Below are positions 37,822-41,713 of a stretch of 64,000 bases of DNA, piece by piece. Position 1 is the first letter of the stretch. Every line of letters starts with the position of its first letter. A program made the translations under genes and the position numbers. Source of the DNA: an uncultured Gemmatimonadales bacterium. Lineage in GTDB: Bacteria; Gemmatimonadota; Gemmatimonadetes; Gemmatimonadales; GWC2-71-9. Location of the stretch: contig CAVYSW010000005.1 of the NCBI GenBank assembly GCA_963771275.1, positions 32,001 to 96,000 on the forward strand. Direction: 5' to 3'. The notes beneath the pieces are model-generated. The model saw only the letters and a list, made by a program, of their open reading frames with translations, ran no database searches and was not told the DNA's origin.

Positions 37822-38763
37822 TCACGCCGGCGCCTTGACGGCGACCTGCTCGGCGAGCGCCAGCCCCTGGCGCAGGATCTCCGCCGCGGCCGCGGGCTTG
37901 GTGTGGTAGCCGGACTTCTTGGTCGTGCGCTGGCGGATCACCAGCACGTCGACTTCCTGCTCGGTGTTGAATTCCTTGACGATGTTCTTGGGCGGATCGT
38001 ACTCGCGGTACACCGCTCCCAGCCCGAACCCCTGCTGCGTCACCAGCACGACGTAGAAGTAGGGATACGACGTGCCCTGGACCTCGTTGATCACGACCTG
38101 GCCGTACAGGCCGAGGAAGCCCTCGTCCCGGTCCGTGAGGTCGACCCGGAACTTCACGTCCTCGGGGATCCGGCCCTCCCCGCCCGGCAGGAGCATCAGC
38201 AGCCGCACCGTGTGCCGTCGGAGCGCCTCGCTCGCGGACGCGAGCACCAGGCGGGTGGCCTCGATCTGCACCTCCAGCTTGGGGCGCACGAGGATCGAGC
38301 GCGTGCCGGTGACCCAGTGCGGCCCCAGCAGCGCCGCCGCGTCGATCGCGAGGAGCCGCGGGACGCCCGGCGTCATCCCGATCGCCGCGACGATCGGCAC
38401 CGCCACGAGCAGCAGCACGATCAGGCCGAGCGGGTTGGTCACGTCGAGCGCGCTGCGATCCCAGCGGCGCATCCGGCGGTGCAGCGCCTCGAGCTCGTCC
38501 AGCTTCTCCATGCCCACCGGCTGCCACGCGCGGTGCGGATCGAACTTGCTGAGCGCCACGCGGTTGTCGTAGCCCCTGACCAGGAGCAGGAGGTTGCCGG
38601 CCACCAGCGGCACCAGCCCCGGCATCAGGGTGCCGGTGACGCCCTGGATCAGGCAGCCCGCCGCGATCAGCGCGAAGCTCGCGCCCAGCCGCACGCCGTA
38701 GGCGAGTCCCGGCAGGACCCAGAACACCACGATGCCGCGATCTGTGGGGCGGGGGAGGATCAT
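37822..38763 (-). CDS. Uncharacterised membrane protein (third gene of the radical SAM cassette)
   Basis: Two pairs of hydrophobic segments and a soluble C-terminal domain. Its ATG overlaps the rSAM stop (ATGA). Confidence 0.75.
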   Translation of the reverse strand: MILPRPTDRGIVVFWVLPGLAYGVRLGASFALIAAGCLIQGVTGTLMPGLVPLVAGNLLLLVRGYDNRVALSKFDPHRAWQPVGMEKLDELEALHRRMRRWDRSALDVTNPLGLIVLLLVAVPIVAAIGMTPGVPRLLAIDAAALLGPHWVTGTRSILVRPKLEVQIEATRLVLASASEALRRHTVRLLMLLPGGEGRIPEDVKFRVDLTDRDEGFLGLYGQVVINEVQGTSYPYFYVVLVTQQGFGLGAVYREYDPPKNIVKEFNTEQEVDVLVIRQRTTKKSGYHTKPAAAAEILRQGLALAEQVAVKAPA

Positions 38764-40112
38764 TGCGCGAAATGCTCCGCCGGCACCGGCGCGAAGCCGT
38801 TCCGGCCGTTCAGCTCGTCGAAGCCCATCTGCCGCCAGTACAGCGGGCAAGCGCCGTTGCAGATCGCGAAGTCGGCGCAGCCGCGGCAGGCGGGGTGCGC
38901 CAGGAACTTGGCGCGGAACTGCACGGCGCGGCGCGACATCCAGACGTCCCGGACGTTCTGCGCCAGCACGTTCCCGACCGGCTCGTCGTACGACGCGCAG
39001 GGCAGCACGTCGCCGTTCGCCCCGACCGACAGCAGGCCGTCGCACGCGCTGCAGCCCTTGTTGCCCAGGCCGTGCGCCACCGGATTGAACAGACACATCG
39101 GCGTGGGGGAGTACCACAGGAACTCGACGCCGTGGCGCCGGCTCTCCGCCGCGATCGCGAGCAGGTGCGGGCCGATCTCGCTGTAGCGCACCGCGAGCCG
39201 CAGGTGCAGCGCGCCGCTCCCGGCGGGCACCATCAGGTTCATGCTGAACTTGGTGGTACCGAGCTCGGTCTTCACGAACCCCGGCATCAGCGCGCACTCG
39301 GCGAGATTGTCGCGGTTGATGGTGGTGTTGGTGTGGACGTGCACGCCGGCCGCCTTGAGGTGGTGGACGGCGGCCACGGTGCGGCCGAACGAGCGCGGGA
39401 TCGTGGTCACCCGCTCGTGCACCGATGCGGTGACGCCCTCGAGGCTCACCTGCGCGGAATCGAGCCCCGCCGCCGCGAGCGTGCCGGCCAACGCCGCGGA
39501 CATCCGGGTGCCGTTGGTGATCAGGTTCACCCGCATGCCGAGTGCCTTGGCGTGGGCCACCAGCGCGGGCAGGTCCCGCCGCAGCGTCGGCTCGCCCCCG
39601 GTGAAGCTCACCGACGGGACCTCGACGTCCTGGTACAGCGCGCGCAGCACCTCCTTCACCTCGGCGGTGGTCATCTCGCGGTCGTCACCCACGGGGTTCG
39701 TGGTGCAGTTGCAGCCCGCGTAGCAGAACGTGCAGCGCAGGTTGCACCGGTAGGTGATGGCCACCTCCGAGAGAATCGGCAGCGTGGCGAACGGCAGCGC
39801 GAACGGCTGGACCTCGACGGCGCGCGTGCGCGTCGTCTCGTCCAGCGTGCCTTCGAGGAATCGCTTCACCGCGAGCAGGAAGCGCTCGATGTCGCCCGCC
39901 TTCTCCGGGTCCCGGCCGATCGCGTCGAGCACGTCGTCGATGCGCTTGCCGTCCAGCAGGTCCTTGAGCAGGGCCACCCCCTGCGGGTTCAGCTTCTGCG
40001 CCAGGTTGGGCCGCTTGATGATCAGGTTGTCGGCCGCGCGCACGAACACGTAGGGCCGGATCCGTGCCACGAACTCGTCGATCCAGGAGAGGTCGGGCGG
40101 GGCGGCGGGCAT
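38760..40112 (-). CDS. Radical SAM/SPASM domain protein with putative N-terminal RRE (PqqD-like) segment
   Basis: CNLRCTFC (CX3CX2C), FTGGEPTL, LITNGT. SPASM cysteines GCSAC...VLPC...CRGC..FAICNGAC. N-terminal QKLNPQGVALLKDLLDG. TGATG overlap with the upstream gene. Confidence 0.9.
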   Translation of the reverse strand: MPAAPPDLSWIDEFVARIRPYVFVRAADNLIIKRPNLAQKLNPQGVALLKDLLDGKRIDDVLDAIGRDPEKAGDIERFLLAVKRFLEGTLDETTRTRAVEVQPFALPFATLPILSEVAITYRCNLRCTFCYAGCNCTTNPVGDDREMTTAEVKEVLRALYQDVEVPSVSFTGGEPTLRRDLPALVAHAKALGMRVNLITNGTRMSAALAGTLAAAGLDSAQVSLEGVTASVHERVTTIPRSFGRTVAAVHHLKAAGVHVHTNTTINRDNLAECALMPGFVKTELGTTKFSMNLMVPAGSGALHLRLAVRYSEIGPHLLAIAAESRRHGVEFLWYSPTPMCLFNPVAHGLGNKGCSACDGLLSVGANGDVLPCASYDEPVGNVLAQNVRDVWMSRRAVQFRAKFLAHPACRGCADFAICNGACPLYWRQMGFDELNGRNGFAPVPAEHFAQ

Positions 40113-41713
40113 CAGTGGGAGCCCCCGCTGACGCACGCGGAGTGGCAGGCCGAATGGCACGCCGAGTGACAGGCGGAGTGGCACGCGGAATGGCACGCCG
40201 AGTGGCAGGCGTCGTGGCACGCGTTGATGTCGGTCACGAGGTCGGTGTCGATTGGGCCCGAGACCAGGTGATCCGCGGCGACGGGCATGGCGGTCTCGTA
40301 GCGGAACGGATTGCGGTCGTCGCGAAGGGCGGGCGTGTAGTACGGATGGCTGCGGTAGTACCACCAGTACCATCCGTCGTCCGTCTGCCGCCGGTCGGGC
40401 TCCGTGTTCCGCGCCGCCAGGTCCTGATAGTAGGCCTTGGTGGCCTCCACGTCGCAGTCCCACGCCTTGGCGCGGATCGTCTCGACGGCCCGGTGCATCA
40501 GGGTCTCGAGCTCCTCCTGCGAGAACTGGCCGTCGTCCGCCAGCGCCTCGAAGAACAGCCGCTCGTGCTCGCTCAGCTGCGCCGTGTCGGGCCGCTGCAC
40601 CACCCGGATGCGCAGCGGGTCCGGGGACGTGACCGCGAGGTAACCCTGTGCCACCATCGCGTCGAGCAGCGCGCTGAGGATGCGCTTGAACGGAATGCCG
40701 AGATAGAACGCGGCCTCGAGCGGCGTGAGGTCCTTGCAGATCTTGCCGGGCTTCCGGAACGTCGAGAGCACCAGCTTGGGCGGCGTCCAGTCGAGCGCGT
40801 CCCAGCGGATCGCGTCGAGCCCTGCGTGCGCCGCGACCATCGAGCGCTGCTTGCCGGCGATCACGAGGAAGAACACCGCGAGCAGCGCCACGATCCCGCC
40901 GCCCAGGAGCAGCTCGGCCTCGACCTGGTGGCTCAGCCCCGTGATGGTCTTGCCGGCCGTTCCGGCCACCCCTGCCGCTCCTGCCGCTCCTGCCGCTCCC
41001 GTCGTCGTCGCTCCCGTGAACCACTCGGCGGGCAGATAGAACTGGGTCCGCATGTCGAACCGGTTCCCCGGGCGCTCGCGGTGGAACACCAGCCGCAGGC
41101 GGTCGGCTTCGCCGCGCTGGTAGTCGATGCGGAACTTGTCGTTTACCCACGGCTCGGTCAGCACCAGGCGGCCGGCCTCGACGTACTGCCGTGGATCGAC
41201 GCCAGGCGGGAGCACGTGCGGCGTCAGGACGTTGAGCGTGTAGTGATCCTGGTTCGCCGCCTCGTCCCATGCCACGGGCGACCAGTTGAAGAACGTGAGC
41301 GCGCGCCCGTCGGGCGCGGTGGTGGGCCCCACGTACCCCGCCGCGGCGAAATCGGTGCGGAAGGCGAAGAAGAACGTCACCGTCCCCGAGCGGACACCTT
41401 GCCCGCCCGCCAGCACGACGTCCCACCGCCCGCGCGACACGGGGGTGATGGAGAGCCCGTAGCGCCGGCCGGCGCCGTCGAGCGCGTACGCCGCGTCGAC
41501 CGCCATCCCCACGCGCAGCCGGTCGTTGCCCTCGAAGTAGAACCCGTGCAGCTCGCCGCGCAGCACCCGCCACTGGACCACGTACTGCACGACGGCGGCG
41601 CCGTCCTGCCGCAGGTCCACGCTGGTCTCGACGAAGCCGATCTCGCCCGGACCGCCCTGCGCGGGCGGGAGGAGCAGCGCCGCGGCGCAGAGCGCCGCGC
41701 GCGTCGGTCGCAT
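40112..41713 (-). CDS. Single-pass membrane protein (DUF2207-like N-domain) with C-terminal (ACHS)n Cys/His repeat tail
   Basis: Signal peptide, [17 protein letters not shown] N-domain, Gly/Ala linker, TM helix, soluble domain, WYWWYY, then ACHD(ACHS)6ACVSGGSH. Confidence 0.85.
   Translation of the reverse strand: [533 protein letters not shown]
40127..40222 (-). repeat. 12-bp coding tandem repeat, 8 units encoding A-C-H/V-S/D
   Basis: gcn tgy cay tcn units with synonymous variation between copies. Confidence 0.92.

Follow-up and report, generated by a model that had tools for sequence, protein, structure and literature searches.

The locus

In a 64,000-nucleotide stretch of DNA from an uncultured Gemmatimonadales bacterium (contig CAVYSW010000005.1, positions 32,001 to 96,000; here called the window), three consecutive genes on the minus strand encode a membrane protein ending in a regular ladder of cysteine and histidine residues (gene 1), a radical S-adenosylmethionine (radical SAM) enzyme with a SPASM domain (gene 2) and a second membrane protein (gene 3). 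The trio recurs in bacteria of many phyla, and the tail of gene 1 is very probably the substrate of the gene 2 enzyme, as judged from the sequences of the window and its relatives. The features are as follows, with lengths and positions in amino acids (aa) and RRE standing for the recognition element of peptides made on the ribosome and modified after translation (RiPPs).

40112..41713, minus strand: gene 1, 533-aa tail protein (open reading frame, ORF, and translation)
40856..40912, minus strand: single transmembrane helix of gene 1, aa 268-286 (Kyte-Doolittle, 19-residue window)
40466..40756, minus strand: TIGR04222-like part of the cytoplasmic domain predicted for gene 1, aa 320-416 (NCBIfam, E 3e-07, below the cut-off)
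40115..40219, minus strand: Cys-His ladder CHD-A(CHSA)6-CVSGGSH of gene 1, aa 499-533 (sequence, alignment, Tandem Repeats Finder)
38760..40112, minus strand: gene 2, 450-aa enzyme with putative RRE, radical SAM and SPASM domains (ORF, Pfam, NCBIfam, family alignment and profile)
39843..40085, minus strand: probable RRE of gene 2, a PqqD-like winged helix, aa 10-90 (Pfam family hits, AlphaFold2, VIA-align)
39723..39746, minus strand: CX3CX2C radical SAM cluster motif of gene 2, C123/C127/C130 (sequence; invariant in 68)
38847..39095, minus strand: SPASM region of gene 2 with eight invariant cysteines, C340, C354, C357, C372, C409, C412, C418 and C422 (Pfam and alignment)
37822..38763, minus strand: gene 3, 313-aa membrane protein of no known family (ORF; no Pfam or NCBIfam match)
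37825..38286, minus strand: C-terminal soluble domain of gene 3, aa 160-313, possibly YbjN- or type III secretion chaperone-like (Foldseek, VIA-align)

Consecutive stop and start codons overlap throughout the trio. The stop of gene 1 is shared with the start of gene 2 in TGATG at 40114-40110, and the stop of gene 2 with the start of gene 3 in ATGA at 38763-38760, both on the minus strand. Because the G+C content of the window is about 70%, long spurious ORFs are open in every frame; the three cassette genes are nevertheless real. The original prediction, made from the letters of this stretch, had described three minus-strand genes joined by such overlaps, a signal-like segment, one transmembrane helix, a cytoplasmic part and an (ACHS)6 tail in gene 1, a CX3CX2C motif with a SPASM cysteine set in gene 2, and a membrane protein of no known family in gene 3. 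This description agrees with the sequence, the translations, the Pfam Radical_SAM and SPASM scores and the Pfam and NCBIfam searches.

The Cys-His ladder and its carrier protein

The last 37 residues of gene 1 read NACHD(ACHS)6ACVSGGSH, and the 35 residues of the ladder contain eight cysteines at a spacing of four, seven ladder histidines and one terminal histidine. Tandem Repeats Finder reported a period of 12 nucleotides with 7.6 copies at 40133-40223, a repeat far beyond chance. Tail statistics were collected from 74 tails, namely that of the window and those of 73 of the related loci described below. Eight cysteines are found in 67 of these tails, nine in four and ten in three, and one 35-letter tail occurs in 42 of the 74, identical letter for letter. 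Within the internal units, histidine at +1 and alanine at +3 are present in 528 of 528 cases; the C, H and A columns are invariant in 74 sequences, and only position +2 varies (S 445, D 71, N 7, A 4, G 1). In all 74 tails the last cysteine is followed by V-S-G, giving a cap C-V-S-G after the ladder. Distant relatives with 29-40% identity keep the A-C-H-S/D unit and the cap and carry 3-11 cysteines.

Among the 67 tails of standard length, identity amounts to 0.98 in protein, 0.78 in DNA and 0.43 at the third codon position, and in one lineage (L019) the serine codons of the tail alternate between TCN and AGC. The near-identical protein together with the divergent third positions and the serine codon switching argues for selection on the peptide and not on a DNA repeat. 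A slippage-prone microsatellite was rejected for the same reason, as synonymous sites are scrambled. A c-type haem attachment site was also rejected because the ladder spacing is CX3CH and not CXXCH, and because the tail is predicted to be cytoplasmic and not on the outer side of the membrane. The motif C/S-x-P/A-x-R, by which the enzyme anSME recognises its substrates, does not occur in the tail.

The protein that carries the ladder begins with a signal-like segment and has a single segment reaching at least 1.6 on the Kyte-Doolittle scale, aa 268-286 (2.85 in a 19-residue window), followed by GKQRS. From the signal-like N-terminus and the one hydrophobic segment followed by K/R, the C-terminal 245 residues including the tail are predicted to be cytoplasmic, which with only one transmembrane helix would place tail and enzyme on the same side of the membrane. 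TIGR04222 reaches 30.3 bits on the window protein (E 3e-07), below its cut-off of 43, and matches 39 of the 74 family members at E<=0.01, so that gene 1 is likely a remote homologue of TIGR04222 and not a formal member. The DUF2207 (PF09972) N-terminal domain model gives 12.7 bits (E 0.15) on the window protein against a gathering threshold of 24.4, and 28 of 74 family members match it at E<=0.01 (best 8.9e-07). By these profile comparisons gene 1 is a remote relative of DUF2207 through this N-terminal domain, and its outer domain is DUF2207-like.

The carrier is conserved from end to end (mean pairwise identity 0.53). Conservation extends into the approximately 25 residues preceding the ladder (consensus IPVxxDHLxxGxxDTDLxxxLNV), where P469, P477, D481, H482, N497 and V498 are each found in at least 90% of sequences; this stretch is a candidate recognition sequence for the RRE. 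Between the TIGR04222-like domain and the pre-ladder segment lies an aromatic-rich stretch (aa 445-460, approximately 40334-40381; consensus DxxWYxWYHNxHPYY) with W448, W451 and Y452 conserved, which may be a membrane-interface or docking element.

The radical SAM/SPASM enzyme

Gene 2 scores 94.9 bits with Pfam Radical_SAM (cut-off 29.5) and 38.1 bits with Pfam SPASM over aa 354-412 (cut-off 21.5). C123, C127 and C130 are invariant across 68 aligned family members, and the same alignment gives a SPASM spacing of C357-X9-G-X4-C372 and C409-X2-C412-X5-C418-X3-C422. The usual last downstream cysteine of a SPASM set is absent and C340 and C354 are extra, so that the ligation of the auxiliary clusters may be unusual. 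A further pair of cysteines lies right after the CX3CX2C motif (aa 131-136, approximately 39705-39722, Y-A-G-C134-N-C136), of which C134 is conserved in at least 90%.

No NCBIfam equivalog comes near its cut-off on gene 2. The best scores belong to the cofactor enzymes AhbD (116.5 bits against a cut-off of 500), NirJ and PqqE, all far below the cut-off. Among structures in the PDB, the gene 2 family profile is closest to SkfB (E 1e-28) and PqqE (9e-24), followed by Tes, SuiB, BlsE, anSME (6e-18) and CteB (3e-12). These alignments begin at profile positions of approximately 86-120, leaving the first 85 or so residues unmatched by sequence.

For these N-terminal residues the original prediction had suggested a resemblance to PqqD or an RRE, and this has gained support from several sides. 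Pfam PqqD is the commonest match to the domain, found in 30 of 68 members at E<=1 (best 0.0015, all below threshold), compared with at most four of 68 for any other Pfam family. The AlphaFold2 model consists of a helix followed by b1-b2-b3-a1-a2-a3, an RRE topology, with a block confidence (pLDDT) of 82-93 over residues 11-90. An exhaustive VIA alignment of this model against 48,161 PDB representatives placed TbiB1 first (Z 7.4, root-mean-square deviation 2.2, 71 aligned residues, 24% identity), followed by TfuB1 (Z 7.3) and PqqD (Z 6.2); the CteB N-terminus (Z 5.4), the RRE of PbtF and the N-termini of TigE and LynD were also among the matches. A sequence profile of the domain found nothing significant in the PDB (TfuB1, E 0.34). 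The domain is assigned as an RRE with moderate to good confidence on the basis of the model and the family hits. With the CX3CX2C motif, a SPASM cysteine set including CX2CX5CX3C and the putative N-terminal RRE, gene 2 has the features of an RRE-dependent radical SAM/SPASM maturase.

The membrane partner

Gene 3 has no match in Pfam or NCBIfam even at E<=10, and in the ESM Atlas it falls into unnamed clusters only. Its AlphaFold2 model (mean pLDDT 86.4) contains two membrane helical hairpins, that is four helices, and a C-terminal alpha/beta domain. For this domain, Foldseek proposes YbjN with a probability of 0.96 and an E value of 0.016, and VIA-align yields Z scores of 5.1-7.7 to 1yb3, 2plg, Spa15, DR_1245, AmyR, SicP, SpcS and others. 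A segment at aa 277-288 (approximately 37900-37935) is conserved as R-Q-x-T-T-K-x-S-G-Y-H-T, with R277, T280, G285, Y286 and T288 invariant in 56 sequences. In the same 56 sequences gene 3 has no invariant cysteine or histidine.

Distribution and linkage

Within its own order the tail protein is patchy, being present in three of 41 related genomes, and gene 3 occurs in exactly the same three. A word-indexed search retrieved 30 tail proteins from metagenome-assembled genomes labelled Thermoleophilia, Desulfobacterales, KSB3, Thiolapillus, Bacteroidales, Calditrichaeota and others, and an exhaustive search yielded 323 cluster representatives at E<=0.001. For the study of gene neighbourhoods, one genome per species was scanned and the best 80 of 148 loci were analysed. 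Going by the titles of their records, these include Gemmatimonadota, Gammaproteobacteria, Verrucomicrobia, Desulfobacterota, Dehalococcoidia, Planctomycetota, Clostridia and Calditrichia, and also Aminicenantes, Bacteroidota, Acidobacteriota, Thermoleophilia/Gaiellales, Spirochaetota, Cloacimonetes and Victivallales. Carriers of the cassette belong to a dozen or more phyla and are mainly uncultured bacteria of sediments and anaerobes; Desulfobulbus alkaliphilus DSM 24258, represented among the 80 loci, is a cultured carrier.

Linkage of the three genes is strict. The radical SAM gene lies directly downstream of the tail gene in 76 of 80 loci, so the case that homologues of the tail commonly lack such a neighbour, named in the original prediction as one that would speak against it, did not arise. 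Gene 3 comes next in 65 of 80. A contig end truncates three of the four loci that lack the enzyme and 14 of the 15 that lack gene 3. The sole true exception is a Cloacimonetes metagenome-assembled genome (L033), where a convergent sigma-54-type regulator, and not the enzyme, comes after the tail gene. This genome holds the enzyme and gene 3 together on another contig (L085/L086), where the 4.4 kb upstream of the pair contain no tail gene, so that the three genes still co-occur in the genome. Tail and enzyme genes overlap or abut in 25 of 63 loci, enzyme and gene 3 overlap in 29 of 51, and the pairwise identities of the three proteins correlate with each other (Spearman rho 0.70-0.78, 52 loci). 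When ORFs were clustered across the 80 loci, the trio was recovered in 75, 72 and 56 of them and the next largest cluster in six. No fourth conserved gene surrounds the trio in these loci, in particular no protease, exporter (transporter) or further tailoring gene.

It had also been noted from the start that no small precursor ORF was visible. This holds in the window, where the genes overlap, and beyond it. No other (C[HVY]xx) stretch of at least three units was found outside the tail genes in the 80 loci, no shared Cys-rich ORF in the eight widest gaps between tail and enzyme genes, and no other site coding for CHxACHxACH in the bacterium's own genome. The architecture of RRE, radical SAM and SPASM domains, the strict linkage and the shared predicted cytoplasmic location make the gene 1 tail, with high confidence, the expected substrate of the gene 2 enzyme. 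The carrier is conserved as a whole and has neither a conserved protease nor a conserved exporter beside it, so that the product most likely remains part of the membrane protein.

Proposed mechanism

As a whole, the data are probably best explained by a self-contained cassette of three genes that modifies a protein in place. The RRE of gene 2 would dock on the conserved residues that immediately precede the ladder in gene 1, and the flexible tail would thread through the active site of the enzyme to be processed unit by unit. In this scheme the enzyme would combine docking by the RRE, a [4Fe-4S] core cleaving SAM, and a SPASM domain holding auxiliary clusters. While an auxiliary cluster holds the cysteine sulfur, 5'-deoxyadenosyl could generate a carbon radical on a residue nearby, to which the sulfur would be bonded; each unit would thereby gain one thioether and lose 2 Da, which makes seven to eight thioethers per tail. 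The preferred acceptor would be the invariant alanine at +3, by analogy with the Cys-to-(i+3) links in CrpA, a Cys-rich repeat protein modified by the enzyme CrpC in Methanococcus voltae. In the product the invariant histidines would be arrayed as a rigid ladder that would probably serve to bind metal. Gene 3 would anchor its chaperone-like domain at the cytoplasmic face of the membrane and probably present or hold the tail, a role suggested only weakly by its structure model.

Separate parts of this scheme differ in confidence. Serial thioethers are favoured because the nearest solved relative, SkfB, is a thioether synthase and because CrpC/CrpA provides a precedent, and by this analogy thioethers are proposed tentatively, at slightly less than even confidence. 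That the modified product binds metal is conceivable and rather doubtful. The invariance of the histidines implies a role either in the product, for example in metal ligation, or in the chemistry, and for this reason other chemistries and an unmodified ladder were both kept as alternatives.

It is unlikely, and still to be taken seriously, that the enzyme modifies the tail by a reaction other than cysteine thioether formation. Such a reaction could be a His-centred C-C or C-S cross-link (cyclophane-type on H-S-A, or Cys-His), formation of formylglycine or a thioaldehyde, epimerisation, or conversion of Cys-His pairs to a new heterocycle. It would account for the histidine at +1, which is as invariant as the cysteine and would not be required by a pure link from cysteine to carbon; the enzyme also falls in no thioether-forming family above its cut-off, and its solved relatives include the non-thioether enzymes PqqE, SuiB, anSME, Tes and BlsE. 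Of these options, cysteine oxidation as in anSME is improbable: anSME is not known to have an RRE, and its motif is missing from the tail. The PDB match to anSME lies over the core and SPASM domain. SkfB as the closest solved sequence relative also speaks for thioethers, as does periodic cysteine beside an RRE-SPASM enzyme, a hallmark of sactipeptide, ranthipeptide and CrpA systems (PMC13692751).

Another possibility, with little probability, is that the tail is an unmodified Cys/His ladder for metal or iron-sulfur clusters, used by the radical SAM enzyme as a scaffold or carrier or merely sharing a pathway with it. Eight cysteines and eight histidines within 35 residues at a helical i/i+4 spacing would be a plausible ligand array, and the best NCBIfam scores of the enzyme, far below cut-off as they are, point to cofactor enzymes. 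Against such a function stands the RRE, which serves to dock peptides and is typical of enzymes that go on to modify them; among SPASM enzymes that build cofactors, AhbD and NirJ, for example, are not known to have one. A metal function would fit the copper chelation by bufferins (PMC12452194) and the up-regulation of Crp genes on pyrite (PMC13692751). The strict invariance of the alanine and of the C-V-S-G-G cap would not be needed for simple metal binding. Finally, the ladder could be a multi-copy precursor from which each four-residue unit is modified and cut out as a small cofactor or metabolite, as for pyrroloquinoline quinone or mycofactocin. Identical units repeated at the extreme C-terminus would suit this, as would the 3-11 units of distant relatives, as if copy number only set the yield. 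The missing conservation of a protease, transporter or further tailoring gene in the 80 loci, the eight cysteines fixed in 67 of 74 tails of the window's subfamily and the conservation of the carrier over its full length make it highly improbable.

Several observations weigh against modification of the tail by serial thioethers in a three-gene cassette. PapB- and SCIFF-type enzymes use an acidic or amide acceptor, and the ladder has no fixed residue of this kind, aspartate being found only at the variable +2 position. An absolutely conserved histidine is no less expected of a plain metal-binding motif than of a cross-link. One genome (L033) has its tail gene unlinked from the enzyme. Support for the RRE is moderate and not strong, as Pfam matched nothing in the N-terminal domain of the window enzyme itself, Foldseek found nothing better than E 1.6 for the model in the PDB, and all VIA Z scores are below 8, a range that may reflect a common arrangement. 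The fold assignment of gene 3 is weak (E 0.016; Z<8). Related DUF2207/TIGR04222 proteins have low-complexity tails without a radical SAM neighbour (PMC12452194).

Neighbouring genes and gene calls

Directly upstream of gene 1 lies a molybdenum hydroxylase pair on the minus strand (41718-44424). It consists of a large subunit at 41718..43904 (minus strand; MoCoBD_1/2, with a weak Tat-signal-like N-terminus) and a 2Fe-2S small subunit within an ORF at 43840..44424 (minus strand). The large-subunit stop is just 4 bp ahead of the start of gene 1, so that the trio may be co-transcribed with the hydroxylase here; the hydroxylase genes are not conserved neighbours in the 80 related loci. On the other side, 16 bp after gene 3 and on the same strand, follows a homologue of AlaX-type alanyl-tRNA editing proteins (tRNA_SAD and DHHA1; 36612-37805, minus strand), which is not a conserved neighbour either. 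Further downstream, a 735-aa ORF (34386-36593, minus strand) seems to be composite: its N-terminal part resembles a phosphotransferase and its C-terminal part a nucleotidyltransferase. The joint between them is rich in Arg, Gly and Pro, resembles a wrong-frame reading and is overlapped by an ORF in a different frame (35135..35695), and the region probably represents two or three separate genes.

Wrong frames kept open by the high G+C content also affect the cassette itself. A 937-aa ORF at 38760-41573 (minus strand) is a wrong-frame reading of gene 1 fused to the radical SAM gene. In the public proteins P0006, P0022, P0024 and P0032 the ladder is called in a shifted frame (ends ...LPLRV... or ...ATRPVT...) or fused to the enzyme. 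Owing to such calls, the tail is under-reported in public protein sets.

Significance

Most of what is known of radical SAM/SPASM maturases comes from small secreted peptides. It was only recently that modification of a full-size protein was demonstrated, in the single case of the soluble archaeal protein CrpA; with the cassette, such chemistry would reach an integral membrane protein. The cassette points to a chemical modification, so far unstudied, that is made on an entire membrane protein in bacteria belonging to many phyla. Since the substrate motif is simple and strict, with Cys, His and Ala fixed and +2 free, it would be an attractive model for repeat processing, and with at least one cultured carrier strain the cassette is experimentally reachable. 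It would also give a functional handle on DUF2207 and TIGR04222, two very large families of unknown function that share the design of a membrane protein plus low-complexity tail.

A more far-reaching idea, for which the prospects are slim, is that the ladder matures into a new protein-derived cofactor, a rigid chain of seven to eight thioether (or Cys-His) rings whose imidazoles and sulfurs line metal ions at the cytoplasmic membrane face. If this were true, the protein, tethered in the membrane, could store metal, act as a sensor or provide a path for electrons, coupled to its outer DUF2207-like domain, and the ladder would be the first cofactor of the RiPP type to be made on an integral membrane protein. 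A general logic for DUF2207/TIGR04222 tail proteins would then also suggest itself: the functional part would be the tail, and a dedicated enzyme would mature it.

Comparison with known systems

The enzyme shares its architecture with the maturases of ranthipeptides and sactipeptides (CteB for SCIFF, PapB for freyrasin, SkfB and the thuricin enzymes), and the family profile finds SkfB and CteB among its PDB matches with the E values given above. Periodic cysteines are also known from their substrates, such as the CX3D repeats of PapA and the CxxxC spacing of thuricin CD. Ranthipeptides and sactipeptides are made from short leader-core peptides, which undergo cleavage and export, whereas the putative substrate in the window is part of a 533-aa membrane protein, and none of the NCBIfam models of these systems reaches its cut-off on the window enzyme. 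A four-residue cysteine periodicity beside a radical SAM/SPASM enzyme is likewise found in two systems predicted by Haft, the Cys-Xaa-Xaa-Xaa (TIGR04117/TIGR04115) and ACGX (TIGR04340) systems. The TIGR04117 target model matches the window tail weakly (18 bits, E 0.0022) below its cut-off of 50, the TIGR04115 maturase model (cut-off 350 bits) has no match in the bacterium's own genome at E<=0.001, and TIGR04340 gives 76.9 bits on the window enzyme against a cut-off of 400. The targets of TIGR04117 and TIGR04340 are small proteins, unlike gene 1, and both systems are uncharacterised as far as the searched literature shows.

QhpD carries an RRE, and QhpC is part of quinohemoprotein amine dehydrogenase. 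In this pair a radical SAM/SPASM enzyme makes cysteine thioethers in a protein subunit that is retained in the mature enzyme (PMC13692751). QhpC, a small soluble subunit, has links from Cys to Asp or Glu and no known repeat, and the likeness to the window cassette is one of description only.

On the side of the carrier, a proposal made without experiment holds that MNIO (DUF692) enzymes act on TIGR04222 membrane proteins with Cys-rich tails as their protein substrates (PMC12452194). These TIGR04222/DUF2207 tail proteins resemble gene 1 in being membrane proteins with a TIGR04222-type domain, a C-terminal repeat tail containing Cys and an enzyme neighbour proposed to act on the protein itself. 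The MNIO-linked tails are Gly/Ser-rich and predicted to be periplasmic (PMC12452194), whereas the window tail has a radical SAM partner, a strict ACHS unit and a predicted cytoplasmic location.

CrpC of Methanococcus voltae is an enzyme with RRE, radical SAM and SPASM domains that installs ranthionine links on the 28.8-kDa Cys-rich repeat protein CrpA, each from a cysteine to a residue approximately three positions downstream (PMC13692751, 2026). The third protein of that cluster, CrpB, raised the extent of modification, and a metal-related role is suspected (PMC13692751). Both systems are three-gene clusters in which an RRE, radical SAM and SPASM enzyme lies beside a full-size Cys-rich repeat protein. 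CrpA is soluble, with a 17-residue repeat and an N-terminal leader, whereas the window substrate would be a membrane protein with a four-residue unit and an invariant histidine, and its recognition stretch must lie inside the protein. Gene 3 with its four transmembrane helices and CrpB are unrelated by description. The TIGR04463 model, with a cut-off of 525 bits, aligns to the window enzyme only over the radical SAM core and scores 32.9 bits there. The main text of the CrpC paper contains neither "membrane" nor "histidine", and neither the ladder motif nor DUF2207 was found in its three supplements (PMC13692751).

In the literature searched, with subscription journals outside its coverage, no paper was found that describes the cassette, a CHSACHS tail or the pairing of a radical SAM enzyme with DUF2207. 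The original prediction had put the system forward as a candidate for a new one. With respect to curated families, none of which fits, and to papers this stood, whereas the concept itself has a precedent in CrpC/CrpA (PMC13692751). Going by sequence comparison, the cassette works like CrpC/CrpA, QhpD/QhpC and the ranthipeptide and sactipeptide systems and is a member of no family tested. It would represent an uncharacterised, widespread and membrane-tethered form of radical SAM/SPASM maturation of cysteine repeats.

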